Source: Halocafeteria seosinensis
Taxonomy: Eukaryota
Length of the DNA: 20,000 nucleotides
NCBI GenBank assembly: GCA_001687465.1
Contig: LVLI01000141.1
Coordinates: forward strand, 183,034-203,033
Reading direction: 5' to 3'
This document shows positions 3-20,000 of the stretch, piece after piece. Each line of letters starts with the position of its first letter. Position 1 is the first letter of the stretch. The notes below the pieces were generated by a model. That model was not told where the DNA came from. It did no database searches and saw nothing but the letters and a program-made list of their open reading frames with translations. The position numbers were made by a program, and so were the translations under genes.

Positions 3-1073
3 AGTGCCGTTCCGCACAGCCAAGCTGTGTGGAATACGCTATTGGAATTGTGTCTAAGTGATGATGTGTCAGACCCCAAGACTATGCAAAAAGTGCAGGA
101 AGAGGTGGCGTTAAACCGCACGAATTCAACAAAGCCACCGGTTAGGGAAACAGACCAGTCGGCGATATCAGACTTTGATGAGGAGACAGCTGAGCTGAAT
201 AAGGAAGCACGGGAGGAAGCACTAGACTCCGAAGTGCTCAATGAAATCTTGCGAAACAGGCAAGCAAATTACGATCAAGAGCACGCCCTTGTTTTGGTCC
301 AACTACATGATTACTACAATGGCATCGTTCATATGGCTGATAAAATGCAGCTGTATGACTTACTCTTACAAACTCAGATTACTCACGCAAAGGCCGCGTC
401 ACGGCAAGGAAACTCGGAGGAAGCGAAGATGACGCGACAAGAGATATTGGCCACTGTAAGCCAACATGGTATAGCGGATCGTGACTTGTATGTAAACGCT
501 CTGCAATATTTTGTCGATAGTTATACTGCATCAAACGACAAAGAAACTGAAAAAGAAGAGACGACTTGCATCAAGACCGTTTTAAAAGAAATCAAATCAA
601 AAGGAGTGCTCGAGCCTCTACAAGTAATTGATATCGTGTCCAGTAATCCGCGAACGCCGTTTGTATTAATCAAGAACTATATAACCGACCAGTTGAAGGA
701 AGAAGAGAAGACAACAGCAGAAGACCAGCGCATCGTGGAAGGACTGAGGACGGAAGCCCGACGATATAAGGAACAGGCCAACGAGTACCGGAAGAAGGTG
801 AAACAAGTGCAGGAGGAGGGGTCGAAGGCACTAAGAGACACACGATACGGTACACGATCCATGGCGCTCGGACCCACATCGCTTACCGCTGAAGAAGAGC
901 AAGAGATCTATCAAAAGCAGCAAGCTCAAAAGAAGTTTGGCGACCCGAAGCGTCTTCTTCAAGACCTTTCCACAGCCGCCAGTATGGAAACAGTTACGGA
1001 ATATTTTAAGCACGGTTTATTTGATAAAGAAGCTTTGGAGAAGACTGAACCTGAGCGCGAAACGGACGACTAG
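3..1073 (+). CDS. VPS11: Vacuolar protein sorting 11 homolog (HOPS/CORVET core), C-terminal part; 5'-truncated at the window edge
   Basis: Frame is open from base 3. It has a clathrin-repeat-like helical region (VWNTLLELCL...YDQEHALVLVQLHDY...LYVNALQYF...LEPLQVIDIVSSN...IKNYI), a coiled coil (EDQRIVEGLRTE) and a VPS11_C-like tail (RLLQDL...ETVTEYFKHGLF). TAG stop at 1071-1073. No RING cysteines seen. Confidence 0.8.
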   Translation, partial: SAVPHSQAVWNTLLELCLSDDVSDPKTMQKVQEEVALNRTNSTKPPVRETDQSAISDFDEETAELNKEAREEALDSEVLNEILRNRQANYDQEHALVLVQLHDYYNGIVHMADKMQLYDLLLQTQITHAKAASRQGNSEEAKMTRQEILATVSQHGIADRDLYVNALQYFVDSYTASNDKETEKEETTCIKTVLKEIKSKGVLEPLQVIDIVSSNPRTPFVLIKNYITDQLKEEEKTTAEDQRIVEGLRTEARRYKEQANEYRKKVKQVQEEGSKALRDTRYGTRSMALGPTSLTAEEEQEIYQKQQAQKKFGDPKRLLQDLSTAASMETVTEYFKHGLFDKEALEKTEPERETDD

Positions 1074-2166: not shown

Positions 2167-3093
2167 TTAAAATCTCTGTTGTAGTCGAGAGGCCACTTGT
2201 CTCATCTGGTTATATACCTTTCCGGGAGGCGCACCGAGTATCAAGCTGCAGATAGCATCTCTTGCAACTTGAATGTTACTGTAGGCTCCCAGGATATGTA
2301 TCTTAGAATCTGCAACGACGATTCTCGTGCGGGTAGCATTCTCTATAGCATGCCGTGTCTTCCCCTGGTGGCCCGCAATCCTACCGATGGCACGGCTCAA
2401 ATGATCCCCTTTCAGTGACTTAACATCTTGAATCTCGAACGACTCTGTTGCCAATTAACATACATGTTGTATAGTTCGTATCTATGAATATAATAACTGC
2501 TACCAGTGCCTTACCGATGTATAAGTCTTCTAATCGAAGCAAAGCCACAGCGTCGTTAACTTCGAAACCTAACATAAAGGCTCGGACAAAGTCCTCAGCT
2601 TTTTGGAGCGCAGAGAAGTCCTCTGTATACTCCGAAGTCTGTATCAAGCGGGAAAAAAACACAATCATTATGGCTCGCTTTACAGCACAATACGCATTAT
2701 GTGAGAGATCGTACCCTCATCTCGACACATCTCGTCTTCGGGTTAAATCTAATCTGTAGCTTCATGTATTCCACGACGGGTCGCATTATGTCCTCCCATT
2801 GCTCACGTAAGGGTGTATATCGGTGCTGAGGCACCCTAATGGAACGAGTCTCTGATTGTTTGGTCTGCAAACGAATAATAGTTGCATAAGAGCCTCCCTG
2901 TCTATCTGGGTGTCAGGCTAGACAATCCACATACTGCCACGTCCGCTGCACGAAGAGCTGGAAATGAAGGTCGACTGTCTGTCTTGCCCGGTCCACTAGC
3001 GCTAGCGTCTCCACTACCGCTGGCATGTGTTCCATTGCTGGCTGAATGCATTTCCACGTCTTGCGACGGGATCTCTTCCTCCGCTGCGCTCAT
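2167..3093 (-). CDS. PNO1: Pre-rRNA processing KH-domain protein PNO1/Dim2, 236 aa; exons 3093-2935, 2864-2715, 2638-2515, 2444-2167
   Basis: Three GT-AG introns (2865-2934, 2639-2714, 2445-2514) join into one frame with the hallmark motifs [95 protein letters not shown] and [11 protein letters not shown]. Confidence 0.96.
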
Positions 3094-3429
3094 TTTCTTC
3101 TCTTCCTAAGCCTTATCACTCAGGTCAGACTGTTGCAGACGATAGTGCCGAACTATATGACTACTCAACGGGCTTCTACAAACACCTATGCGCATCATGC
3201 CACGCACATCCTCGCTGTATATGGAGGATGGCGGTCTGACACCTTCAGGTTGAAGTTATACTGAAACATTTGATTGCCATGTTGTCCGCCCTTATCCCGT
3301 CGCGGGTTTAATGCTCAGCAAGCCACTCATCTTGTCGTATTGGAAGACATATGAAGACTCCTATGTATAATATTGCTTACACGCTCTAAGAATTGTCAAC
3401 CTGTTATAGGCCTAGAGAGATAGACAAGG
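3094..3429. promoter_or_regulatory. Short divergent intergenic region, probable bidirectional promoter (PNO1 / lipase)
   Basis: 336 bp between head-to-head ATGs, with an AT-rich TATAATATT near 3367. Positional inference only. Confidence 0.4.
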
Positions 3430-4590
3430 ATGAAAGGGCTCTTGTTGAACTTGAGCCTCTTGGCGTTGTGCCTCTTATCCATGTGCGGGTCTGCCGTCGG
3501 AGGATACAACCAATCGGAAGCCATTCGCTACGTTTGGGTACGTATACTAATTCGTCATTTGCCTACCGTCTCCTTCTTGATGCCACAATGTTTCTGTTGT
3601 CTGAATGCAGCTGTCGGCCGCGGCTTACTGCAGTGCGGAGAGCATTCGGCACTGGAACTGTGGACGCCCATGTAGGTTCACGGCGTGGTATTTATAGTGA
3701 AATGCATATGGCTTTAACCTGTTTTCGTTTTTCAGGCGAGGAAATACCATCCATGCGAGACGTGAAGCAGATATACAACGAAGATTACGATGCTCAAGTA
3801 TACGTTGGGCAGTTCAAAACAAGTTCTGCTGCTGCTGGTAAGCTCCCTTCTTTTTTAGTGTGCTATACGCGTTACTATGTATGCATACTCTTGTCAAACA
3901 GACACCGTCATAAGCTTTCGAGGGACGATCCCTTCTTCTATACAAGACTGGATCGATGATCTCTATTTTACTGAAGAGGCTCCGTATCCCTACTGCTCAG
4001 GGTGTAAGGTACACAGCGGCTTCTATGATACATACAGTGCGCTAAAGCCACAAATCAAGGAAGCGCTGAATGACCTTGGGGTGGATTCTTCGACGAACAT
4101 CCAAATCACAGGGCATAGTCTTGGAGCGGCGCTAGCGGCACTGTGCGCCTTTGATTTGAGACACGAAGGGTACACTGTGCATCAAGTCTTCACGTTCGGA
4201 CAGCCGCGTGTGGGAAATAAAGAATTCGCTGAGACGTTTTCATCGACTGTGCACCAGTCCACTACGTATAGGGTTGTACATTGGGCAGATATTGTCGCTC
4301 AGCTTCCCTGGCAGTCTACGTTTGGCGTGCCATTTCATCACGTCCCCACCGAAGTTTGGTACAACGCAAATAGCTCTTCGTATACGGTGTGCAATGGCAG
4401 TGGTGAGGACCCGAATTGCAGTGACTCACTGGATCTTGCGCTGTCTGTATCGGATCATCTTCACTACATCAATATTCCTATTTCCGGGAGTTGTGACCCT
4501 GGTTCGTTCAGTTTCAACGATGCCGCTTCGTTCGAGATATTGAGTGCAGAAGCCAAAAAACAACTTGATCGTATAGGGAAATCAAACTAA
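3430..4590 (+). CDS. Secreted class 3 lipase (alpha/beta hydrolase, Lipase_3 family), 319 aa; exons 3430-3537, 3611-3671, 3736-3837, 3902-4590
   Basis: Signal peptide MKGLLLNLSLLALCLLSMCGSA. GT-AG introns 3538-3610, 3672-3735 and 3838-3901 restore LSAAAYC...WNCGRPC, VISFRGT and CKVHSGF. Nucleophile motif GHSLG at 4111-4125, TFGQPRVGN, catalytic Asp in HWADIV and His in SDHLHY. Confidence 0.93.
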
Positions 4591-6316
4591 ATGAAGAAGG
4601 ATGCTTATCCAATAGAGAAATCAATTTTGTCCTAATCATTCAGAGAAGAAAGGTAGGAATAGGTAGGCAATGTATTCAAGGGTCTGGTAGATAAGTCGTG
4701 GAGCTTACGGTAACGTTTGCCGGTGTTCATCCATTAGAGTATCATATTACCCGAATTGATGCGCAGTTTTACCAACCCTCCTCACCCCCGCCCAGAGGAA
4801 ACTCCTGTTTAGATTAAAACACTTATGGTATGCTTGCTAGAGCACCAAAAGGACGTAACCAGTTCGAAAACGGCATATGGCATACTGCCTGCGGACGTGA
4901 GGGCTACAATCCTCGTTGTTTAGCCTACAAAGCGCCCGGGAGACAGGAGAGAGACCGACAGTGATCTTGCTACAGCTGCGCTTTTTATACAATTGCATAA
5001 ATCCCCGTTATTCTGTGTATTAGAATTGCTCTAACCGGAAGAATCTACTCTGCATGTCAGGGAGTAGTATCAAAATAGGTACGGAGAGAACTGGGACGGA
5101 AAAGGCCTCAATGCTGTGTAGTATAGTGTGTACCAGCCCATCCCGTTCGAGACGTGCGCAATAAAGACTTGGCTGATAGTTTTTCGTCAAGTGTTGGCAC
5201 GGCACATCATGCCGCACATGTGAGGAGATTGATGCCCAATTTCCGTGACAGTTTCCTGCCTTCAGCATTTGATACGTCCTCTGGTCATCATGGTAGTGCA
5301 GGTTCCTTATCATACACTTAGAGTCTCTATATGAGGTTAACATCAATTAGATCAGCGATCCTATTTACGGGATTGTGGTCGCGGCCTGTTCAGTTTCAAT
5401 GCGCAGCTTCGATCCAGATAAGTGCACAACCAAGGAACAAATTGACGGTAGAGCAGAGAGCTCAAATCAATGAGAAAGTCGAGCAACTGTCTCTTCGTAC
5501 CGGTACTGCTGTTTTCTTTCCCATGTGATCCGAATCGCCTTCATGCTGTTACCAGCATCATTGTGCACGCCCGAAATCACGCGGAGTTTACCAGTATTTC
5601 TCGTCCTCCACCTCCAAAGGCTGTCCCTGTCTCAGTCAAAGGACAATTAGTGCACTTTTGCTTCAGCGCAAAGAAGGAATGCAACTTGTTTCGAACATAC
5701 TAACTTGAGGCACCGATGGGGAAACAAGAGGTCATAACCGGAGGCGGAGTTGCCAACTGGATGTGCCGCATCTACCGGTACGACTCAACCCCTGGAAACT
5801 TCAACAAAATGCAACATTTGTCCAAATGGGCTTGAGGAGAAGAAGCGTGCATGGCACCATATCATGACTGTTACTTCCAGAAAATGCCGGATGAGAAAGG
5901 AAAAGAGCGACAACTTTGTATGCTGGCCAATGCGTCAGGTCGCAGCCGAAAGAGCCGTACCGCCACGAGCGGCGCACCGGCTCTCGCAAGCTGCCAGTCA
6001 AGGAATATGCGCCGATACGTTTGGAATCATACCCGGGTAATAAAGCAATGGGGTTGTTTGTTTTTCTGTCTTCAAAGTGGTTAAAAGTGTAACAAAAGCG
6101 AAGAAGAGAGTTTTCGTGAGTAACGTTTGCGTCATTCCTCCCTTTTGTGGTTGTTTGTATTTTTGAAAGGAAGCACGCCATGCGACCGAACTGACCCGAA
6201 AGAGCCAACGACGTTGACGTGTTCTGTGTATGTGTTTTGTGTAGAATTCGTGTTACACACGTACTGGCATAAGAACACCCCTCATCCCCTGCGACACTAG
6301 GACTAAAAGAGGCAAA

Positions 6317-9300
6317 ATGGCTTTGTATAGCCGAAACGAGAATCGCGTCGTTGAGCCTGTGAGCGATTTCCCGGAGAAGAGAGGCTGGAGGACAACAAAG
6401 AGGAAACGATATTTTAGTACCCGAAGAGAAGCTCATCGGACACATATAACCACCTTTTTAGCAGCGTTATGCGCAGTCTTCAGCGCGATATCGAGCGCGG
6501 ACATTACTATGAGATACGAGGATTCCATAGACCCCAGACTTCAATGCGAGGGTAAGTAAACGCCAGCACGAGCGGCGCTTCGCCACCGCCGCTTCAACTC
6601 GTGCGATATGTTGTTTCTGCAGAAGGACAAGCCAGTTTCATCCTGGAAACCGGCGAAGATTATTCTGAAAAGTGTTTTAAATTCATTGACATTGGTACGT
6701 GAACCAGGGCTAGGGTGGGAGCAAGTGACTGGACGGTCTAACGTTCGTGTGCTTTGCCGCAGTAATACCAACGGAAAATTTTGGAGATGTCGACAAACTT
6801 GTTCTCGATGTCGATAAGGGCAGTGCTCAGTTTCTTTCCCCTGTTGCTGCGGATAGAGCGGTGGTAGTGCTCAATGAGACATTCGAGGATTCCTGTGGTA
6901 TGTGGCCTTGTGGCCTATCGAGTACATACAGGTGCACCACCCAAATTCCCATTGAATTGTTTGCGACCCGTTTATGCAGTTGAACACCCAATTCCGGGTG
7001 GAGGAGAAATTTGCGGTGGACGAAAAGACTGGATGCTGCTAGTAGTTCATCCCGATACCGACTTTGCAACAGCATCTGATATCGAAGTGGGTATCGATGT
7101 CCGCTTGATGGCCAGTTCTAGTGCTACGTCTACCATATATATGCGCGGTGCATTGAGTAGTAGCTGTGCTAATCCTGATGAATTTACGGCTAACAGCACT
7201 GATGCCACCGAGTGGGTCGTTCCCGGAATTGCGCATCGAGTATCCCGGCAAGATGTCAGCATAGATACTGATTTGCCAGGTCGCCATTACGAAGTGCCCT
7301 TGGATTCCCACAAGCGACCATATAGTGTCAACGTTGAAATATCCGAGTGCATAGACGTTTTGAACGCAACGTGGACTTTGCAGTCACCTGGTGGAATTAG
7401 TGAGATAGAGGACCAATTCAGCGTCTCAGAGGGCCCGCTGAAACAAAGGCAATGGTTTAATGAATTGCGCCGAAATAGTATTACGACGTTTGAGATATTA
7501 GATTCTGATGGCTCCGTAGGAGCAAAAACTGCCCGCTCATTTGGATTAGATACCGAGTTCCTCGTCTCTCAGTTTGAAAATATTCCTGACACGGTACCGG
7601 TGCTACACGCTCAAACGAGGAAGATGGAGCACTCTGCAACTATAGTTCTCGAGGGAGAGGTTATTGATTATACCTATATAAATGAGACGGATGTTCTGAG
7701 TGTTGTCCCTCCCCGTTCAGAGCTCACTGCCAATTGGCGGGCTGTGAAAAGGACTTTGACTGACCCAGTTGGGCGTAAGATAGCAGGAGCGACCCTGACA
7801 CAGCGAGGGTCTATCTTCTTTACCGAACATTTACTCTTTCGCAACGCTTCGGTAAACGTTGCCCACGATGGTGAGTGGCTTGTAAGTGACGAAACTTTCA
7901 TAAACGCTTCTATGCAATGCGGGAGGCACTCTCTCGAGCTAAGTCGCGGTGCTCATTTTACCGTGGATGCACCTTTCCTTGGTCCTTCACGTGGTAACGC
8001 ACCCGAGTTCAAATTCGATTTGGATTCCATTTTCCAAAAAATGGGGTTGATGGATTATGCGGGAAGCAAGGCATTCCGTGGATTGGCTTGCGACCTAGAG
8101 TTTTCAGTCGAAATAGGAAACTCGTCGTCAGATGGCTCCCGTGTATACCACTGGCAGGAACTAGAGAGCACGATGTCTTTGGACTTTTTGGCATGTGATC
8201 CTGTAGAGTTCAATGGCTATCCGGCCTTTCCGAACAGGTCGCATGCTTGTGATCAGTTCTCATTGGAGACTCTCGACCCAGACTCCCGGAACAGCATCTT
8301 CCTGGAAGGGGCTAGCCTCTCTCATGAGCTCCTTGCCGTGGATGGAGAGCCGTTTGAAGAAGATACACAAATTTACCCTGGAAGAGAACTCACGTTCCTC
8401 ATCGAATACGAGATGCCGTTTACAGCCGAGGGAGAACTGAGCATCGCAGTAGATTTGGACACGAATTACTTGGTTTCCCCGCAAAATTTTCATGATAACG
8501 CAACCTATCCTTTACGCACCCGTTCTGGTTCTGGACGCATCCCTCCTTTAGGTTTTTTTCAATACGGTGTTAACGATAATCACTTCGGTTCCATATCCGA
8601 AAGTGTTCCGCAGTTACATATCTCGGGCACACGATTCACTCTTACGTGGCCAGCTGTTCAGGATAGTGACAATCGGCAAAGCACTATTCATATTCTTTAT
8701 ACGCTCCCTGTAAGGGACATTCCTTCGGCCGATGGAACAGATATAATATCCACAGCCAGAGCTAACTCGGATGCTAGAACGGCGGCTTCTCAGGAAGCCA
8801 TCAACGAAGCCAAAGTGGAAGCGTCAATTCAGGTAGTAAATCGACAACCTGTTCTGAAAATAAGAGCGGGTTTCGCCGGAGTCACAGGTAACCGAGAAAC
8901 CAGTGGGAATACGCTTCGTCCGAATGATGGAGAGCCTCGACTGAGCAACTGTGGGGGTACTTGTGGTATATCAGACCTCTTCGTCTTTGAGAGATTCGCG
9001 CGAGCATCTTGGCCCTTCGTCAGCAGTGGGGAAGAAACGTCTTTATCCGAGTCCGGAATTCTTGACATGCCTCAGGAAATAACGAACCTGGATGCTGGCG
9101 ACGTCGCTGTCTTCGCTGTCGGACTTGTGAACTTGGGGGGATCTTCTGCTTTCGATGTAAAGTTCGAATGTTGGACGCCTCTAATGTCTCAGAATGCAAC
9201 GATGTTCCCTCTGTCTGCTAATATCTCGCTCGTATCTAACGGAAGCTCATTTGAGATTTCAGGCAAAAGCGGCAATCTGTTTGTAGATGATGAAAACGTG

Positions 9301-12300
9301 CTCTTCGTCAACGCAAGTGTCTCGAAACTAGCTGGGAGGACTCAGCCGTCAGGTGCGCCGGTTGCCACCGGAGAGAACACTTTGGTCTTACTTGTCGAAA
9401 CCACCGCTGAACCGTTGCTGCAATGGTCCGGCTTCACGTCGAATGCGTATAACACGCAATCTGTAGAATGTCGCATCTTGGAGTACGCCTCTGTTCCTGG
9501 AGGACCGGATTTTACAGAATCCAGCTTGGATCTTCCTGATTTTGAGTCTGAACCTGCCGTTGGACGAGCAGCTACTGCTACCTTTGCAGACTCTTGGATT
9601 ATTGGGGAAAGTAGCAACCCTTATACAAGCGATAACTTAGTTGGTGCTGACAACTGTGTGGAGCAACACCACGGAGAAGAGACTCGGCTCGGCATGCTGG
9701 TCGAATTTCCCGAGGGCTCTACGGATAAAGCGATTGCCAGTGTTGACATGAGACCACCAAATTCATTGTTCATTCTTGAAGAGTCAGTTCTCTTTTCCAG
9801 GACTTTTCTCGGAGCTCCTGGCCATGCTCAGAATTTCTCCGATCAGAGTGTGGGAGTGCTTGTAGGAGCTAACATTCAGGCTCGTATCGACATCGGGATG
9901 ACCCAGGGCGGCAACATCTCGATCAAGTTCACTGACGTCGTGAACTGGCCTGATAACAAATACAGCAGTGTGGACTCGTTTGATACAGACAAAATCTATT
10001 TTGAGTTTAGCACGCGGGTGGATGTAGACTTCGTCAAAGTTACTGGCCAGGAAGCCGTTTTGCAAGTTTCATCGCCTAGTCCGTCTACTGCGGAATTGAC
10101 CGGGAGCTCTTCGACTCCGATCTGTTTCGATGGCACTACGCCTGCCGAAGTGGTGTTGGTGGAAGCGAAGAGTAATATATCCGGGGTCATTAGTGCTTAC
10201 GACTTCTTTGAAGCGTCGTTCACTCTTCAGTTGGACGGCATGGACCAAATTCCTGCCTATGGCAACTTCACTCTGGCAAGTGAATCGCAGAATGCTACGT
10301 TTAGTGGAGTCTTCTGGGAAGATGGATCATGGACTACGGGTGTCGATGGAGAATGTAGCCGGCAACTAGCTTCTGGGTCACTCCATGTTTCACAGCTCTC
10401 GTTTGGATGCGAGGGCCAGTTTCCTCCTGGGGCACAATTGAATTTTACGGCAGTTTTTGTAGTCCAACCGAATTTAATTAGACCGTTGGGCAACGTGATT
10501 GGATCAGCGACATGGGCGTGGCAGAGCGCACCCGGTAGTTTGGAAGACGATGGAACATGGATGAATGTCCTGCGCCGCCAGAGCGATATTGACGCTGTCA
10601 GCCTCAACGTTGCTGGCCTGGTGAACGGCGGCCTGAGTATTACCAATACGAGCTTCGAACATACTGCAAGCTCCCGATTTGATCCGGAGATAAACGATGT
10701 TACGTTTGGAGAAGTAATCACACTCAGTGTTGCTATCCAACCACCAGAGTCTCAGTTCGATGCTGGCTTAGTCTTGAGAGCGAATGATACTTTAACCGGA
10801 GGCGTAGAGGTACACGACATTCGACTTCCTTCGTCAAAGGTAGGAAGGTTTGTCACTGTGGACACAAACTCATCTGACATTTTTTCCAGCTCGAGTGGGA
10901 ATGGAACACATGTCTTTGTGTCACTCGGTGAAATCTTGATTGACACAGGCAATGCATTTTCTACGCCTCATGATATGGAGTTTACGGTTGAAATTGACGT
11001 GTTGTTAAATGCATCTTCAGAGTTGGAAGATGGGGATATCGTTGGTCTCGATGCAAGAATTTATTACGTTTGGCCGCTTGAGGATCTCAGAAGAGATGGT
11101 GTCAGCGAACTTCTTGGTACGACAAAATTTGAAGTTGTGGAGCCTACCCTAGTCCTAGGGCATGAATTACAAGTTCCATCTCTTAACATAACGGGAGACG
11201 AGGTTGTGACGATTGAACTGGCGTTATCGCACGAGGATGGTATCCACGTTGTGGCACTCGGGGATACATCGTTAACTGCGGGAAACAATGAATTAGTTAG
11301 CGCGGGATTCTCGGTCACCATACTCGATACGACGTCAGAGTTTTCCTCATTATATTCTGTTTCAGAAGTGATCGTCAATGGCAGTCAGCAATCAATAACC
11401 CATGGCACTCGGGTCATTCACACTATCAGGGAATTTCACCAAACGTCAGGTCCATTATACATCGACTATAAGATTCGTCTAAACTCCGATGTTGAGAGCG
11501 GCAAGACATTCACGCCCAGGTTTGAGTTGTCATGGAGCTCTGGGCCTCAAGACACTGTCAGGGACGAGTTTGGGTTATCTTCCAGTGTTCTAAGGGACTA
11601 CTCTTTTGCAACGGAAACCGAGAGAAATTTCAAAATTGCTGAGCCGGTGGTCCAATTGTTGTCGGCGAATGACGATGGTCTTGTTGACTTCTTGGGTGAT
11701 AATGAAGTCACTTTCGGAACTGCGATCTTTTTCAATTTCTCCTTGTCTGTAGTAGAGGCACAGGTCACAGATGGACTGCTGCATCTCGAAGTGACAAATA
11801 TTTTCTTTCTTGAGCTAGATACTGTTTTTGTTCCACGCGGCATCGGCTTCGAAAACTGCACACATGATAAGACGGATTTGTCGTTGACCAAGGATTCTGC
11901 TGATATTCGGTTTTGCCCGTTTCTAAGTAACACTACGGGAGGTGCGCGATACAATATCTTTTACTTTACTGGGAAAGCTTACGTAGATGGATGCAACATA
12001 CCTCAAAGCAATCGAGGAGAGGTTGGTCACATTGAGGTCTCATTTTCTTCCAAACTCACCAGCTCAGGTGTCGTCCACTCAGCGGAGAAAAAGCTTGTGG
12101 AACCGCATGGTGTTTCTCTCAACGCGGTTGTATCGCCAGTTTCGGGTTTGTTCTCGGGCGTCTTTGTGGACACACAGATAAGAGTCTCTTGGGAGGACGA
12201 GAAAGACTTATCGCCAGCCTACAATGTAACATTGATTGACGACGGTGTCGTTCTCGACGAAGCCGATGCGTTGATTCTTGTGTTAAGACAGATCTCGGTA

Positions 12301-15300
12301 GGTGGAGTCGCCGTGGAGAACAGCAAGCCTCTGGTTGCGGTAGATATCCTGTCACCCTTAGCGGAGCTAAACGCTACATACGACACTATTGTGAGTCAGG
12401 ATATAGAATTTGGAGAAGAGGGGGACCACGAAATAGGCCTTCAACATTCGTCGCATCCTAACCCGATCGTTGGCTGTCAACAGAACTATACTACCATTGT
12501 TCCTTATTCCGTTTTCGTGGGTGTTCCGTGGGTCAATTTAACTGTTGAAAACGATAGGGAACTAAGGCCAGACAGTGGCAACATTATGACAGCTGGATCC
12601 ACGCTTAAATTCGATGCGTCGCTGAATGTTCCTCCGGGCAAGGCTAGTGAGTCGGCACTGAAGTTTACACCCAGTGAGAACTCTTGTATCCAATTTGATA
12701 GAGTAGAAGCTTGGGAGGTAAGCAACTCCAGCTTTTTGTTCGTTCAAGGCAAGTCCTGGGACTCGGTTTTTCAGCAGAATGTTACCCTCTCGGGAGACAC
12801 CTTTATTGTGCACTTAGGAACGTTGATTTCCCGAAGGTCTGAAGAAGACGACGAAGTGAATGTGCTCCATGTTGTTTTCTCGGCTTCTGTGTGTAGGGGG
12901 AATTCATTCCCAGGAGTCAAGCGAACTGTTTCATTCCAGCTAGTGTCGAAAGATATCGCCGCTGAGGCTATTACCGCCCAGACCTCTCTGTTTTACGTTC
13001 AACCATACCCAGAATTGACGTTGTTCCCGCAAAGTGTTGTGGGAGTTGAAGGACTTCAGAAGTTTAATCTTACATTGAAACTTGCAAACCAGGCTTCTCC
13101 GTTTTCCTCACAGGGGTTTAATATAAGTTTATTTAGCCTTAGGAGTTACTCGTCGTTCAGGATATCCGAAGTGTTCCTCGTCGATCATATGGCATCCAGT
13201 AAGAATGTAGGTGGCAACGTGGTGGCCAATATGTCGATAGTCGAGTTTGGGTTCTTAGAAATTGGCAATGTGATCAATGCTTCTTTGGAAATCGAGGTGC
13301 TGCCGACCATTCAGCTTGGAACTGTGACGGAACTTGAGTTCGCCATGCACGTCAGTACGCATCCTTCCGCGGGCGGAGTTTGCATACCCTCGGAGTTTCC
13401 TCTCTCTCGCATCGAAAGTGCAGTCCCGCAGGTTCAGCTGTCTTTGGATGTAGAATCCGTTGAACCTCCTTTTACTCAATCCCTTCCCGGAGACACGGTT
13501 TCTTCTCCTCCCGGAGCAAAATTGTCCATCAATGTATCAGTGGTATTCCCTGTCGGCAAGGTTGCGGGGTTTCGGGCTACAATTGAGTCTGATGATGCGG
13601 TAGTGTTTTTAGTGTCCACAGATTATTTTAACATTACCTCCCTCGGCCAGTCCTCGTTTACACTTGAAAATGTTAGCATCAGCTCAGATACTGTCACGGC
13701 TGAAGTTGGTGATGTGTGGAACAATGGCTCCTCCGATGGTTTGTCATTGTTTCAACTGGTGGCAACTGGAATCGTTACAAATGCCTCAAGTGTCGTTCGA
13801 GGAGTAACGTCCCCTGTCCGTTCTCGCGTGCAAGGAACTTTGCTTACGGTGACAGAGAAGGAGTCTACTGTTCTAGTCTCCGAGCATAACGTTACTACCA
13901 TCCAAGGTCCTGGGGCCACTATGTTTGTTGAACCAGTTGAATACGTATCTTGGTCATTCCAGCTGGAGAATGAGGGTGGGGTACCGGTACTTAGTCCTCT
14001 TTTTGATGTGTCGTTGTCTACGACATCCTTGAATTCATACGTTGTCAGAAGCGCAACTGTCTTGGCTGAAGAAGATGTCGTTCTGTGCCCAGATCTTTCT
14101 ACACAAGCGTGTATGTTGCCAGCTATAGATGTGGGGGATCGCGTAACGCTAAACAGCACTGTTTTTTTGACAGTTGAGGCCGAAGTGAATTTAATCCAAG
14201 AGATTTTTTTCCGAGTGACGGGCTATAGTAGACCCAAACCAGGTTTATACAGTCGAGAATATGATGTCACGCAAGGTCTATCTGGTACTTTAAGGATACC
14301 ATCGCCGGCGTCGCTACTCAACGTCGCAATATTAAGCGAATGTTGCAGAGATGGCATGGCGGCCATTGGGGCTACCATACAGTTAACGCAGGTGCTTGAG
14401 TTCGTAGGCGGCAGCCTGACGAATGCATCGCTTTGTCTACAATGGACACCAACTAGTGCTCTTTCTTCGGTGCAAACAAAACATGTTGAGAAATCGTCAG
14501 GCGTAGAGTTTGTCGCTGCCGATTTTCTGGAACTCGGCGTCCTGCAACAGCCAAACTCAGCGTTTCTGTATCTGGGAGACTTAGTGATCAACAACACGCA
14601 TCACGGTGTATCGGACAACGTCACCATCGAGTTCACTGCTATTGTGAACACTGTCAGAGAAAACGGAATCGGCTCGACGGTCAACGTTACTTCTAGTCTG
14701 TCTTCATCAGCCGTTTCAGGTAAAGATACATTTTCGACGGCTGATTTTGTTATTACGGCGCCGCATATTACTCTACGGCACAACTATGGGCCAGATTCTG
14801 CAATACGGGGAATGACAAGACACAATATATCTGTTGAGGCAGTAGCTCAGTCATCAAACCTGAACTCTGACGCGTTCAATCTGACGCTTCATGATGAGAA
14901 CCTGGGACCCCGTTATCGTCTCACCAATGTTTGGCTGTTGTTTGGAAATGGAACCATGGATCACATATGGAGGAGCAAATGTGTGTTCAACAAATCATGT
15001 TTCCATTTTCCAGAAGGCCAATATATTTTAAGCGGCGAAGACGATGACACAACATTACTTGAGCAATTGACACGAGGCGATGGTGTGTGTATAACATATG
15101 AGGTGGAGGTTCGATTTGATATTTTACTGAACAGTAGTATCTCCGTATCCCCGACTCTTGGATGGCAAAGCGTGTCGAATTGTTTTGATGGAAATTGTCG
15201 AAAGTATACAAACACTACCGAGGATGTAGTATTCTTACATGTGCTATCTCCGACGTATGACGTCGCTAGTCTTGTCTTGGAGAAACCTGCTGGCTTCAGT

Positions 15301-18300
15301 GGACTGTCGAGTGATTCCGTGCTGGTGGGACAACCTTTCCATGTTATTATAAATATTTCTTTTCCTTTTGGCAGAGTTGCGGGCTTCGAGAGTGAGCTCG
15401 TAGTCAGTGGTGTGTCGTTTGACTTTTCCGAGTCCGTTTCCATTACCAACGAGGGAGTTGATCTCTTGTCCACGGACAGTGGAAAACTGGTGACAGACGT
15501 CATTTCGATTCAGGAAAGGGTATCATGGTCTATAGGGGACATTCTAAACGACGCCTTTGCTGAAAGCAGGACAAATGAAAAGTTGTCGCTGTCGGTGGAG
15601 GGTCGTGTAAGCAGTACCGAGGGAATGCTAACCAGTGGAAGCGTATTCGACTTTACCCACATATCGTATAGCACGAGTTTGCATAGGGAATACAATAGGG
15701 TTGTGTCGCAGGAGCATGTTGTTCGAATTCCTTTGCTTGAGGAATTTGTCGTAAGCCCGACAACCGTTCGACGACTCAATGCTACGGACTTGGTCACATT
15801 TGAAACACGGATTGCTCATGCGAACAGTTCACAAGCTCCAGCTTATCGGGTAGTATTGTTTGACAGACGTCTGGCTTCTCAAAATTTCGTCCTGGAATCA
15901 GTTCGTGTTAATGGTGAACCAAGAGATGGGACGAATTCGACTGTGATCACCGAAATTGACGTATTGGATGTGTTATCCGATGTCAACATCGAATGGTCGT
16001 ACAGATTTAGTGAACTGCTGCCCGCTTCAGTAATCATCGACATGGATCTAGGTCTGGACTACTGGACGTATCCCAATACCTCATTCGGCCTAAAGCAGCG
16101 GCTCTTTCCTGCGGCAAACCCTAAATTGACGACCCAAGATGCGGTTGTGCTGTCATCAATCTCGCCCGTCGAGGAACACACCCAAACTTTGGAGAAATAT
16201 GTAAGCATTGGAAGTGAGATTACTTCGGAAGTTGAGATGATTTTGCCGGGTGGATCACTTTTCAATTTCGAGCTTAACACGAGTATCCTTTTCGCTGAGG
16301 GAAAGCATGGTTTATCAGGATTGTTTGATTTCAGTTTGGATCGAGTTGAGATAATGGAAGAGAATGCTAATATCGAGTTTGAGTGTGATTCTCGCGTGCC
16401 ATTAAACCAAGAAGAGTTGAATCGAGTGTTGGAAAAGGGTAGTGATACTCTGTCGTATTCTTTGTGCGATGTACGTGTTCTCGGTGTCCCGGCTGCTCGT
16501 GTGATATTATTCTATAGTGGATACATTGCGAATGTACCGAAGAATCGTCAAAGAGAAGCATTAAGTGTGAGTTCACAGTTAACCTACGATACGTTGGAGG
16601 ACCTATTGCGATCTGCTTCGTCAGCACTAACGATTGTGGAGCCATCGTTGGCGAACTCGTCGTTAGAAGTAGCTCAATGTGGAGAGCTAATTGGTTCGGA
16701 CGAATCCGTTACGTTGAATATAACTATTCCAAGAGGAGTACTTCCTGAAGGGGTAGCCTATGATGTCATAATTATCGACGAATCGGTGTCTAATGTGTCG
16801 TTCGTGGTAACTGATGTTCGCCAGGATAGTGAGACACTTACAGTCCCAGATGCAACTCACGTCGGTGGATCCTTGAATCCGATCTTTCCTGATAAAGGAA
16901 GTAGTGTTTCGTTAGAATATGAAATTGTTTCAGTGAATCGTGTATCATCAAACCTTACTGTGGGTGAGACGATCTATTTTTCTTACTCATCTGTGTCGAA
17001 TCGGAGTTTGGGTCGAGAATATCGAAGTAATGTGTCGTTTGTCCCATGCGATGTGGTAACAACTGACATAATTCTATTGAACGAGAGTGTAATTAGTGAG
17101 AATGTTGCTCACAGGGATGATGTTGTTGTAGCGGGTGGAAGAGTGCGGTATGAATTTTGGTTATTTGTGCCTGGGTATTTTGTAGCTTCTCCCTCTGTGT
17201 CTTTGGACTTTGAGGATAGTTCAATGGTTGATTTGGAAGCAGTATCTCTATCAGATATTGTTGTTTCCATAGTCATTCCTTCCGGAGAATTGCATTTGGC
17301 GACGGGCGGCGATATTTGTAGCAATGTTGACTCCGCTGTAGTTCAGATTGACCGTGCCCATGACAAGTTGAGTATACTATTTTGTGATTTGGGTGTAGAG
17401 GACATCGCATCGGGTGGAGTGTACATGAAAGTTGAGAGTATATTTGAGTTGGCAGTGAATGATTCGACAGTTTCCGGAAGACATTTAGAGTTTTCAAGCA
17501 ATTTTGGGAAGTTGACCGTTGGGAAGGAAGTTTTCTCGTATAATCTTCCAGTGGTTGAGCCCGAAGTACATCTTGAGATTTCTGGGGAGACTACGTTTAA
17601 TACCGAAGGGTTAATGCGGCACAATATTTCAGTAGAAGCCAGGGCTCTTGGGGAGTTGTTGTCTCACTCTGACGCCTTCAATCTGACACTCCGAGATGAT
17701 CACTTGGGGTTTGCCTACCGGCTCACAAATGTTTGGTTGTCCTTGGACGATGGGACAAAGGATCACGTATGGAGCAGTAGCTGTGTATACAACAAGTCAT
17801 GTTTTCATGGTGAGGCTATCGGGTACATTGTAAGAGGAGAAGGCAGTGAGCATGATATAAGTTTGATCGGAGTACTTCGCCAAGGTGATAGCGTGGCTAT
17901 AACGTATGAAGTGGAAGTACGGTATGACATTGTATTAAACAGTAGTATCTTCGTATCTCCTACGATTGAGTGGCAAAGCGTATCGAATTGTTCTGACGGA
18001 GCGTGCCGAAAGTATACGAACATTTCTGGTGATAGCGTCTCGATGCATGTCTTCCCACCGACGTATGAGATCGGAGCTGTGGTCATGGAAGAACCTTCCG
18101 GATTCAGAGGGTTATCAAGTAATTCCGTACTGGTTGGGCAGCCGTTTCAAATAATTATCAATATCTCGTTCCCATTTGGAAAGGTAATTGCTCTGGAGAG
18201 TGATCTCGTGGTTAATGGTGTATCCGTTGTGTTTCCTGAGCTTGTTTCGATCGTACATTCGGGAGTTGAATTGTTGTCATTGGATAATGGTGAGGTGGAA

Positions 18301-20000
18301 ACCGCTGAACGCTCGAGTCAGGGTCAGGATCAGGGTCGGGGAAAGATATCCTGGTTCATAGGAGATGTTCTAAACGACGGTTTTGCTATGAATGAGATGC
18401 ACGGGAAACTGTCACTATCAGCGGAGGTCCGGCTAAGCAGTAGCGAAGGCGAGGTGATGTCGTCGAGTGGTGAAGTATTCAATTTTACTCATACTATAAA
18501 CAGTTCGAGTTTGCGACGAGAATCTAACACGATTGTTTCTGATGATAATATTGTTAGGATTCCGTCGTTACTGAAATTTGATGTAAACCCGTCGACTGTG
18601 AATCAGCTAAATGCTACTGATCGGGTCACGTTTGAGACTCGAATTTCTCATGCAAACATTTCAGAGGCTCCAGCGTATCTGCTGGAACTATTTGATCAGA
18701 GTTTGCACTCTCCATATTACACCTTGGAGTCTGTTACTGTGAATGGTGATCCTATTTTAAACGTGAGCTGGGGATTAAACTCAACTGTAATAGCCCGGGT
18801 TGATTCGTTAGATCGTGCATCGGAGCTTGTTGTGGAGTGGACATACAAGTTTAGTGAGCTACTTCCTGCCTCGATAATCATTGATTTGGAGTTCTGTGTT
18901 GATTACTGGACGTACCCTGATATTTCGTTTGGATTCAAACGAGGAGTATGCGCTGTAACAAACACTGTTTTGATAACGCAAGACGCTGCGGTATTGTCAT
19001 CTGTCTCATCTGCTATGGAAGACACGCAAATCTCGGAGAAATATGTAAGCATTGGGAGTGAGATTACTTCGGAGGTTGAGATGATTTTGCCGGGTGGATC
19101 ACTTTTCAATTTCGAGCTTAACACGAGTATCCTTTTCGCTGAGGGAAAGCATGGTTTATCAGGATTGTTTGATTTCAGTTTGGATCGAGTTGAGATAATG
19201 GAAGAGAATGCTGATATCGAGTTCGAATGTGATTCTCGCGTGCCATTAAACCAAGAAGAGTTGAATCGAGTGTTGGAAAAGGGTAGTGATACTCTGTCGT
19301 ATTCTTTGTGCGATGTACGTGTTCTCGGTGTCCCGGCTGCTCGTGTGATATTATTCTATAGTGGATACATTGCGAATGTACCGAAGAATCGTCAAGGAGA
19401 AGCATTAAGTGTGAGTTCACAGTTAACCTACGATACCTTGGAGGACCTATTGCGATCTGCGTCGTCAGCACTAACGATTGTGGAGCCATCGTTGGCGAAC
19501 TCGTCGCTAGAAGTAGCTCAATGTGGAGAGTTAATTGGTTCGGACGAATCCGTTACGTTGAATATAACTATTCCAAGAGGAGTACTTCCTGAAGGGGTAG
19601 CCTATGATGTCATAATTATCGACGAATCGGTGTCTAATGTGTCGTTCGTGGTAACTGATGTTCGCCAGGATAGTGAGACACTTACAGTCCCAGATGCAAC
19701 TCACGTCGGTGGATCCTTGAATCCGATTTTTCCTGATAAAGGAAGTAGTGTTTCGTTAGAATATGAAATTGCTTCAGTGAATCGTGTATCATCAAACCTG
19801 ACGGTGGGTGAGACGATCTATTTTTCTTACTCATCTGTGTCGAATCGGAGTTTGGGTCGAGAATATCGAAGTAATGTGTCGTTTGTCCCATGCGATGTGG
19901 TAACAACTGACATAATTCTATTGAACGAGAGTGTAATTAGTGAGAANGTTGCTCACAGGGATGATGTTGTTGTAGCGGGTGGAAGAGTGCGGTATGAATT
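6317..20000 (+). CDS. Giant (>4,480 aa) secreted or cell-surface protein with tandem DUF11-like/Ig-like beta-sandwich repeats, adhesin-like; exons 6317-6551, 6623-6694, 6763-6897, 6980->20000; 3'-truncated
   Basis: I translated frame +1 from 6982 to 20000 and found no stop; the N at 19947 is a third codon position (AAN). Three phase-1 GT-AG introns (6552-6622, 6695-6762, 6898-6979) join upstream exons in frame, including the hydrophobic stretch ITTFLAALCAVFSAISSA. Recurrent motifs are GE.(V/I)T......P.G, VVEP.L, DAGD.(V)..F....N....A(F/Y)DV and W.S.P...R.Y. Confidence 0.9.
14818..19034 (+). repeat. Diverged in-frame internal duplication: 14818-16190 versus 17617-19034
   Basis: Both copies read RHNISVEA...SDAFNLTL.D..LG..YRLTNVWL...NKSCFH...ITYEVEVR.DI.LNSSI.VSPT..WQSVSNC.DG.CRKYTN...SVLVGQPF..IINISFPFG...LNATD.VTFETRI.HAN.S.APAY. 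About 60% aa identity by eye. The offset grows from 2799 to 2844 nt through in-frame indels. Confidence 0.92.
16191..20000 (+). repeat. Near-identical direct repeat with a 2844-nt period: 16191-17156 = 19035-20000 (continues past the window)
   Basis: Base-by-base comparison gave 14 substitutions in 966 nt plus one N and no indels. The period of 2844 nt equals 948 codons. Confidence 0.97.

Follow-up and report, generated by a model that had tools for sequence, protein, structure and literature searches.

Does the flagellate Halocafeteria seosinensis carry, as a gene of its own, a surface adhesin derived from bacteria? The question is raised by a stretch of 20,000 nucleotides (nt) of contig LVLI01000141.1 (GCA_001687465.1, positions 183,034 to 203,033 of the forward strand), referred to here as the window. 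An initial annotation of the window, made from its letters alone, had noted ten motifs reminiscent of bacterial DUF11, TIGR01451, and TIGR04226 proteins and had proposed a domesticated, isopeptide-forming adhesin. All ten motifs lie in one reading frame and in the order given there (starts at 8371, 8662, 8845, 9085, 9370, 9484, 9673, 10648, 10696, and 11134). The span assigned to them, 8341 to 11160, takes in too little: no stop interrupts the frame between 6868 and the window end, the gene model begins at 6317, and the motif-bearing part (residues 602 to 1541) makes up one fifth of the gene. The model runs beyond the window end and encodes more than 4487 amino acids (aa), with three predicted introns followed by a 13-kilobase exon. 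Its product is rich in Ser, Val, Thr, and acidic residues and has a single hydrophobic segment, near the N terminus. Our analysis indicates that the gene belongs to the host and was likely acquired from bacteria long ago, and we put the probability of a bacterial-derived origin together with a product in the form of a long surface rod at about 0.65.

Relationship to bacterial surface adhesins

Searches with the window protein as a single sequence recovered next to nothing. Using phmmer, we obtained no hit among 1.84 billion representatives; a single-sequence search of longer proteins matched none of 7979 candidates, a metagenome scan none of 19 candidates, and a scan of viral contigs none of 72. 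A sequence search of the PDB gave one row only, with an expect value (E) of 0.25. Single-sequence searches also miss the bacterial homologs. The profile comparison that the initial annotation had suggested was negative, in that no Pfam family, PF01345 included, was matched at cutoff by the whole of exon 4 or by 20 pieces covering 6982 to 17580, and no NCBIfam profile, including TIGR01451 and TIGR04226, was matched at its curated cutoff. In the ESM Atlas, DUF11 clusters scored 0.94 to 0.95 with a recognition value of 1889, below the line of 2300, and are taken as a lead only.

The bacterial relatives came into view through tblastn of plasmid records, which gave three weak matches (E of 1e-4 to 9e-3) in proteins of 3259 and 3763 aa. 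The Cupriavidus protein combines DUF4347, a stalk that passes TIGR04226 and TIGR01451, and VCBS repeats; bacterial protein L001 likewise passes both profiles. When 22 further genomic loci were added to the plasmid matches to give a bacterial profile of 24 proteins, the window protein scored 43.2 bits, compared with at most 3.6 bits for 60 local shuffles and one reversal of its sequence. With a diverse profile of 29 bacterial proteins, from which the cluster mates P0036 to P0046, the Fabomonas homolog discussed below, and proteins lacking the N-terminal module had been left out, it scored 151.1 bits, compared with at most 1.0 bit for 62 controls. The best-conserved stretch is a single domain hit (Table 1). 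The stalk alone, beyond residue 1170, scored 55.0 bits with a repeat-domain profile, compared with at most 6.3 bits for its controls (100 shuffles and one reversal). By eye, the bacterial module can also be aligned with the first 580 residues; in this part of the alignment only the first domain scores, at 3.3 bits, a value beaten by 1 of 500 shuffles, and the third N-terminal domain has no profile match. The best ESM Atlas score for the N-terminal part (440 aa of exon 4) was 0.80, and no adhesive domain was recognized at the tip by the structure model, the profiles, or the ESM Atlas. Judged from these comparisons, the window protein is almost certainly homologous to bacterial adhesins. The proposed likeness to DUF11, TIGR01451, and TIGR04226 proteins thus stands as homology to bacterial proteins that bear these domains, and not as formal membership, since all three profiles are negative.

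A metagenome scan with an alignment (A1) in place of the single sequence found 37 loci with approximately 52 to 72% identity to the Cupriavidus-type core, none of them nearer to the window protein than approximately 30%, over short stretches. In a sample of phyla, 7 of 401 genomes matched; these loci were not used further. The bacterial proteins L001 to L024 are themselves conserved, apparently uncharacterized giant proteins of Cupriavidus and Pseudomonas with a DUF4347-stalk-VCBS layout, and an outer-membrane efflux gene lies directly downstream at the two loci tested. Acidity reminiscent of halophiles was considered as a peculiarity of the window protein and dropped, as its bacterial relatives are equally acidic.

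Structure prediction for 1073 residues yielded a model that was poor overall (predicted local distance difference test [pLDDT] of 46) and confident over residues 588 to 769. This domain matched EbpB (9lj6; Z score of 12.1, 129 residues aligned, root mean square deviation [rmsd] of 2.5), the CLIPPER structure 9ifr (Z score of 9.5, 120 of 123 residues, rmsd of 2.9), and pilin D2 domains at Z scores of 11 to 12. A predicted pair of stalk domains farther along the protein matched 9ifr (Z score of 11.6, 121 of 123 residues, rmsd of 2.6) and RrgB (2x9w; Z score of 11.9). A CnaA-like immunoglobulin (Ig) β-sandwich fold is therefore predicted, and it is borne out by Z scores of 9.5 to 12 between the predicted domains and pilin D2 and CLIPPER structures.

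The description of the protein as isopeptide forming did not hold. In one type of bacterial domain, a full triad of Lys, Asp, and Asn occupies its expected columns in 136 of 190 copies (L003 being counted twice among the 190). In the 13 domain hits of the window protein, Asn was found at 0 of 11 aligned positions and Lys at 0 of 2, while Asp was present at 9 of 9; in a second domain type, read by eye, none of the 5 hits that reach the column has Asn. Because Asn and Lys are missing at all aligned positions, the label does not apply. These calls are based on alignment, without atomic coordinates, and indicate that the window protein would work, if at all, as a CLIPPER stalk without the cross-link. 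Several stalk domains of L001 to L024 are also short of triad residues.

Gene model and host genome

The spliced model gives 4487 stop-free residues (Table 1). Using a donor matrix built from the seven confirmed introns of neighboring genes, we found that the three predicted donors rank first to third among the 94 GT sites in 6000 to 7300, and just 5 of 933 GT sites within exon 4 equal the weakest of them. The first 8 bases of intron 3 are identical to those of a confirmed PNO1 intron, and the intron scores as noncoding in the exon 4 frame, though it is stop free. Exon 1 has a weak coding score (-9.5 bits), yet the best among its three frames. The predicted secretion signal at residues 47 to 61 depends on the predicted splicing. 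A fourth strong donor site, at 6228 (7.5 bits), lies upstream of the start, where an intron in the 5' untranslated region is possible. The domains of exon 4 form mostly alternating pairs of approximately 310 aa; their number is an estimate from linkers and profile hits.

Table 1. Features of the window discussed in the text
Feature	Positions	Strand	Remarks
PNO1	2167..3093	-	3 introns spliced; host lineage marker
Class 3 lipase	3424..4590	+	3 introns spliced; closest gene upstream; approximate start
Exon 1	6317..6551	+	Predicted; start codon, basic N-terminal stretch, hydrophobic segment
Hydrophobic segment of exon 1	6455..6499 (residues 47-61)	+	Hydropathy 1.75; read as signal peptide or signal anchor, predicted
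Intron 1	6552..6622	+	Predicted; 71 nt, phase 1, GT-AG; best of 94 donors; read-through hits a stop
Exon 2	6623..6694	+	Predicted; weak coding score, -3.1 bits versus -0.6 in another frame
Intron 2	6695..6762	+	Predicted; 68 nt, phase 1, GT-AG; donor second of 94 GT sites
Exon 3	6763..6897	+	Predicted; coding score +15.6 bits versus -19.4 and -14.1 in other frames
Intron 3	6898..6979	+	Predicted; 82 nt, phase 1, GT-AG; donor third of 94 GT sites
Exon 4	6980..20000	+	Open to window end; ~4340 codons, estimated 27-28 β-sandwich domains
Best-conserved stretch	8281..10029	+	Residues 582-1164; 108.4 bits in a single domain hit, colinear with bacterial N-terminal module
CnaA-like domain	8299..8844	+	Residues 588-769; predicted model
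Stalk domain with last three motifs	10636..11157	+	Residues 1367-1540; 34.1 bits to bacterial stalk-domain profile
Internal duplication	14719..19998	+	~948 aa, three domain pairs
Pair of β-sandwich stalk domains	15220..16137	+	Predicted; mean pLDDT 79.6

The window protein differs from bacterial proteins in its glycosylation signals. It contains 91 N-glycan sequons, 2.3-fold more than the mean of 38.9 (maximum, 57) in 1000 local shuffles, whereas 64 bacterial proteins have 0.56 to 1.33 of the expected number. Thirty-six of its 52 cysteines have a partner within 30 residues, compared with 25.8 expected (P = 0.01); the Cupriavidus relative has almost no cysteines.

Within the internal duplication, a block of 984 nt (16173 to 17156 versus 19017 to 20000) is 98% identical in DNA, with 12 synonymous and 6 nonsynonymous differences over 327 codons; the remainder is 52 to 69% identical in protein. 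Such a block inside an older duplication could reflect recent conversion or unequal exchange, or an effect of assembly.

The neighboring genes encode the C-terminal part of VPS11, an RIIa-domain protein, PNO1, and a class 3 lipase. That they bear introns, as the initial annotation had stated, was confirmed: contigs of runs X2 to X4 lack seven GT-AG introns, which belong to three of these genes. X2 to X4 are three sequencing runs of one sample and are treated as RNA-like solely because introns are skipped. The named best matches of PNO1 are stramenopiles, except for two records labeled Symbiodinium sp. KB8, and a record identical to the searched part of the window PNO1 joins Cafeteria with support of 91/87 in a 27-row tree without an outgroup. 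The host therefore reads as a bicosoecid-like stramenopile. The two Symbiodinium sp. KB8 records (P0049 and P0072) fall with Cafeteria, one being identical in the aligned columns, and are likely contaminants there. The VPS11 C terminus usually carries a RING finger; the part in the window (3 to 1073) holds two cysteines only, and the RING finger seems to be missing.

In run X1, 30 of 30 bins are covered at continuous depth, and one contig (6670 to 7886) unites exons 2 to 4, including their introns. Contigs of runs X2 to X4 lie on exon 4 at a depth of about 2 to 10 (7412 to 8559 in all three runs, 8797 to 9064, and 12433 to 12776), a weak sign of expression. The segment 7412 to 8559 is the best-covered part of exon 4 in these runs, with little or nothing on its flanks, perhaps because of a shorter transcript or a truncated paralog. 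Across 7969 to 12616, X1 depth is approximately twice that of the neighbors, with many contigs of 90 to 99% identity (depth is not a copy number here), and at 12067 to 12465 an X1 variant with small insertions and deletions, with a loose end at 12011, is perhaps a paralog or a decayed copy. The GC content at third codon positions (GC3) of the gene is 0.45, compared with 0.49 to 0.50 in two neighbors; GC is a weak argument against a bacterial source, since bacterial L024 has a GC3 of 0.43.

Because of the sequon excess, the three top-ranked donors, the spliced neighbors, and the X1 coverage, the gene probably belongs to the host genome rather than to a contaminant. The view of the initial annotation that simple contamination is disfavored is thereby upheld: its neighbors are spliced, its sequon excess is outside the bacterial range, and its donors are of the host type.

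Origin and alternative explanations

A mixed-alignment search returned 35 proteins, 34 of which are not EukProt records; those with names are all bacterial (Pseudomonas, Verrucomicrobiales, Anaerolineaceae, Wenzhouxiangella, Microbulbifer, and Acidiferrobacterales). The sole eukaryote is the ancyromonad Fabomonas tropica, with two isoforms of a transcript product, a membrane protein that is unannotated in EukProt (EP00163 P012695/P012696, here P0036/P0034). Its protein scores 678 bits with the 29-protein bacterial profile, passes TIGR01451, and consists of an N-terminal hydrophobic leader, the N-terminal module and stalk pairs, a different repeat, a hydrophobic helix, and a long proline-rich tail. 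The different repeat (P0036 residues about 3230 to 4300) comprises approximately seven units of approximately 140 aa with an Asp-Pro-Asp-Asp motif, ends in Gly-Asp-Trp-Gly, and has no Pfam or NCBIfam match. The proline-rich tail and a sequon excess (78 versus 48 expected) argue that this protein is not a bacterial contaminant. Full Lys-Asp-Asn triads align in four of its domains (region about 1391 to 2621; domain starts at 1391, 1894, 2197, and 2491) and possibly in a fifth; the four are candidates for eukaryotic intramolecular isopeptide bonds.

The phylogeny proposed in the initial annotation gave a partial answer. In a tree of the core, from which three near-duplicate rows (P0001, P0002, and P0018) were left out, the window protein groups with the bacterial DUF4347 clade at 97/92 on a branch of length 3.9, and 0% of 200 bootstrap trees unite it with Fabomonas. 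A FastTree of the whole module places it with Fabomonas at 0.95, as does a quick mixture tree of 20 of the 31 rows, at 47 and with a long-branch warning. All trees are unrooted, and nesting within one bacterial clade was unstable across them. The DUF4347 clade was rejected as the donor, because the diagnostic sites were divided (4 to 5 of 40) and a stalk domain points elsewhere. The trees agree on no single donor and would fit one transfer or two. The proposed bacteria-to-eukaryote direction is based on distribution: in a search that favored bacteria, the family occurs in several bacterial phyla, as opposed to two eukaryotes. A transfer that postdates the last common eukaryotic ancestor appears probable.

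A number of findings weigh against a host gene of bacterial origin that encodes a surface rod. No single contig bridges 4590 to 6980, and none of those listed spans 5133 to 5683, where the link rests on depth. The introns that the initial annotation ascribed to the gene are predicted with host-type donors, and none was seen spliced, as no RNA-like contig covers 5977 to 7304; their acceptors score poorly (272 of 789 AG sites match the weakest one), introns 1 and 2 have GC contents of 0.58 and 0.59 versus 0.34 to 0.46 in the seven confirmed introns, and an intron-free start is available at 6874. The pairing of cysteines is weaker when the duplication is left out (24 of 36; P = 0.043). Both fold predictions used alignments holding bacterial rows. 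Residues 149 to 587 have low fold confidence and little or no profile match, which leaves the tip unexplained. Identity to all bacterial relatives is 15 to 20% over the N-terminal module, with no close donor. The placement of the window protein shifts with the data set between the DUF4347 clade and Fabomonas, and stalk domain 10636 to 11157 points to bacteria other than that clade, its nearest neighbors among 149 other stalk domains being bacterial P0019 and P0020. Finally, the profile in the mixed-alignment search was nine parts bacterial to one part eukaryotic, with at most 100 words, so that eukaryotes may be undercounted; one EukProt protein among 35 hits is a thin sample of the eukaryotic range.

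Part of this evidence would fit a single acquisition at a very early date, close to the root of the eukaryotes, kept in the stramenopile and in Fabomonas, lost or undetected elsewhere, and inherited vertically here. The two eukaryotic proteins unite in two of the three trees, an approximately unbiased (AU) test did not reject them as one clade (P = 0.41), no other row has as many rare residues in common with the window protein as Fabomonas (49, versus 39 for the next row), and Fabomonas ranks third closest for stalk domain 10636 to 11157. However, both proteins form the longest branches, for which the tree program warns of attraction, and the core bootstrap trees keep them apart. Moreover, they are 18.6% identical to each other, no higher than either is to bacteria, and no further eukaryotic hit appeared in single-sequence or mixed-alignment searches. 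We regard a single acquisition of such age as unlikely. A native eukaryotic Ig-like repeat protein that converged on bacterial motifs is scarcely credible. Although there is no curated profile match and integrin legs are among the top Foldseek rows, the latter were rejected on rmsd values of 13 to 16 and template modeling (TM) scores below 0.35, and convergence is largely refuted by the 108-bit match, which runs colinearly through 580 residues and several distinct domains.

A bacterial contaminant fused to the host contig through misassembly would account for the gap in contigs at 5133 to 5683, for the loose end of an X1 contig at 5319, and for introns that RNA does not confirm; X1 itself may be the source of the window. 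It would leave unexplained a sequon excess beyond the bacterial range, host-type donors at three in-frame sites, unbroken X1 depth with low-depth contigs in the splicing runs, and the lack of any close relative in the 1.84 billion representatives or the metagenome scan, and we consider it highly improbable. The remaining alternative accepts the bacterial origin and differs in function: the rod would serve as a spacer or coat (a glycocalyx, or a shield from viruses or predators) rather than as an adhesin. A tip in which no adhesive domain was recognized, heavy predicted glycosylation, and lengthening by duplication are in keeping with such a role, whereas the whole bacterial N-terminal module seems to be kept in order, and such domains make fibrillar adhesin stalks according to PMC12617251. 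A role as spacer or coat seems improbable to us, and adhesion is slightly favored as the job of the window protein.

Proposed role and relation to known systems

We propose that a bacterial-derived adhesin was rebuilt as a eukaryotic surface rod. The protein would enter the secretory pathway, where it would be N-glycosylated and form local disulfides, and these N-glycans and short-range disulfides may replace the lost isopeptide bonds. Internal duplication would have lengthened the stalk to a rod of approximately 28 sandwiches on the cell, with the bacterial N-terminal module as its tip; at roughly 4 nm per domain, the rod would exceed 100 nm. It may hold the tip off the cell for attachment, with a role at surfaces or with prey. 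The anchor would lie past the window end, most likely as a C-terminal membrane helix like that of the Fabomonas homolog. Flagellates like bicosoecids eat bacteria and attach to surfaces.

Among known systems, the CLIPPER/DUF11 domains (PF01345; PDB 9IFR; PMC12617251) share with the window protein the predicted CnaA-like sandwich, repeats arranged in tandem along an extended protein that is likely exported, and the conserved Asp. The window protein differs in lacking a PF01345 match and the triad Lys and Asn, and its gene is eukaryotic, with predicted introns, a sequon excess, and cysteines. PMC12617251 states that the Lys-Asp-Asn triad is not universal in the family, judges its own eukaryotic hits, from a database limited to 1280 aa, to be false positives or contamination, and poses the existence of eukaryotic intramolecular isopeptide domains as an open question. 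Uncharacterized bacterial isopeptide-forming domain-containing fimbrial proteins (TIGR04226/TIGR01451; L001 to L024 and P0003 to P0022) have the same module order and paired stalk domains, but at the low identity given above and with triads that the window protein lacks. Unlike the giant Cupriavidus and Pseudomonas proteins among them, the window protein shows no DUF4347 or VCBS part within the window, and the Cupriavidus protein has two stalk pairs where the window protein has many more. Gram-positive pilin D2 and antigen I/II CnaA domains (RrgB, BcpA, EbpB, and SpaP) share the fold (Z scores of 10 to 12), but at 6 to 18% identity; the window protein has no PDB sequence match and no triad, and sortase assembly is not expected.

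The Fabomonas protein is likewise eukaryotic, with the same N-terminal module and stalk pairs and a sequon excess. It differs from the window protein in being less diverged, in passing TIGR01451, in keeping four triads, and in its C-terminal repeat, helix, and proline-rich tail. That stramenopiles can take up adhesive parts from bacteria has a precedent in the diatom Trailins, giant adhesive proteins whose Choice-of-Anchor-A domain is reported as bacterially acquired and which are shown in adhesive trails, according to the preprint (bioRxiv 10.1101/2023.03.06.531300). Trailins differ in their domain (PF20597), while the window protein seems to keep most of the architecture of a bacterial adhesin. 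We found no paper on DUF11/CLIPPER-type adhesins in protists, in a search of listings and the openings of abstracts that left aside the transferred-gene lists of flagellate genome papers and the supplements of PMC12617251, and the family seems undescribed in eukaryotes.

The domain family is now found in two distant protists, with the triad absent from the window protein and present in four Fabomonas domains. Tentatively, distant flagellates may have domesticated fibrillar adhesins of the CLIPPER type. In Fabomonas, the copy would form true autocatalytic intramolecular isopeptide bonds, which the 2025 survey accepted in no eukaryote, and in the stramenopile it would have swapped these bonds for N-glycans and disulfides. 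If this is true, the two copies would offer a natural experiment in rebuilding a bacterial stalk for the eukaryotic secretory pathway. The Fabomonas homolog opens the question of intramolecular isopeptide bonds in eukaryotes to direct testing. Such genes escape profile scans and may therefore be commoner than annotated. The window protein is a candidate for how small flagellates grip surfaces or prey.

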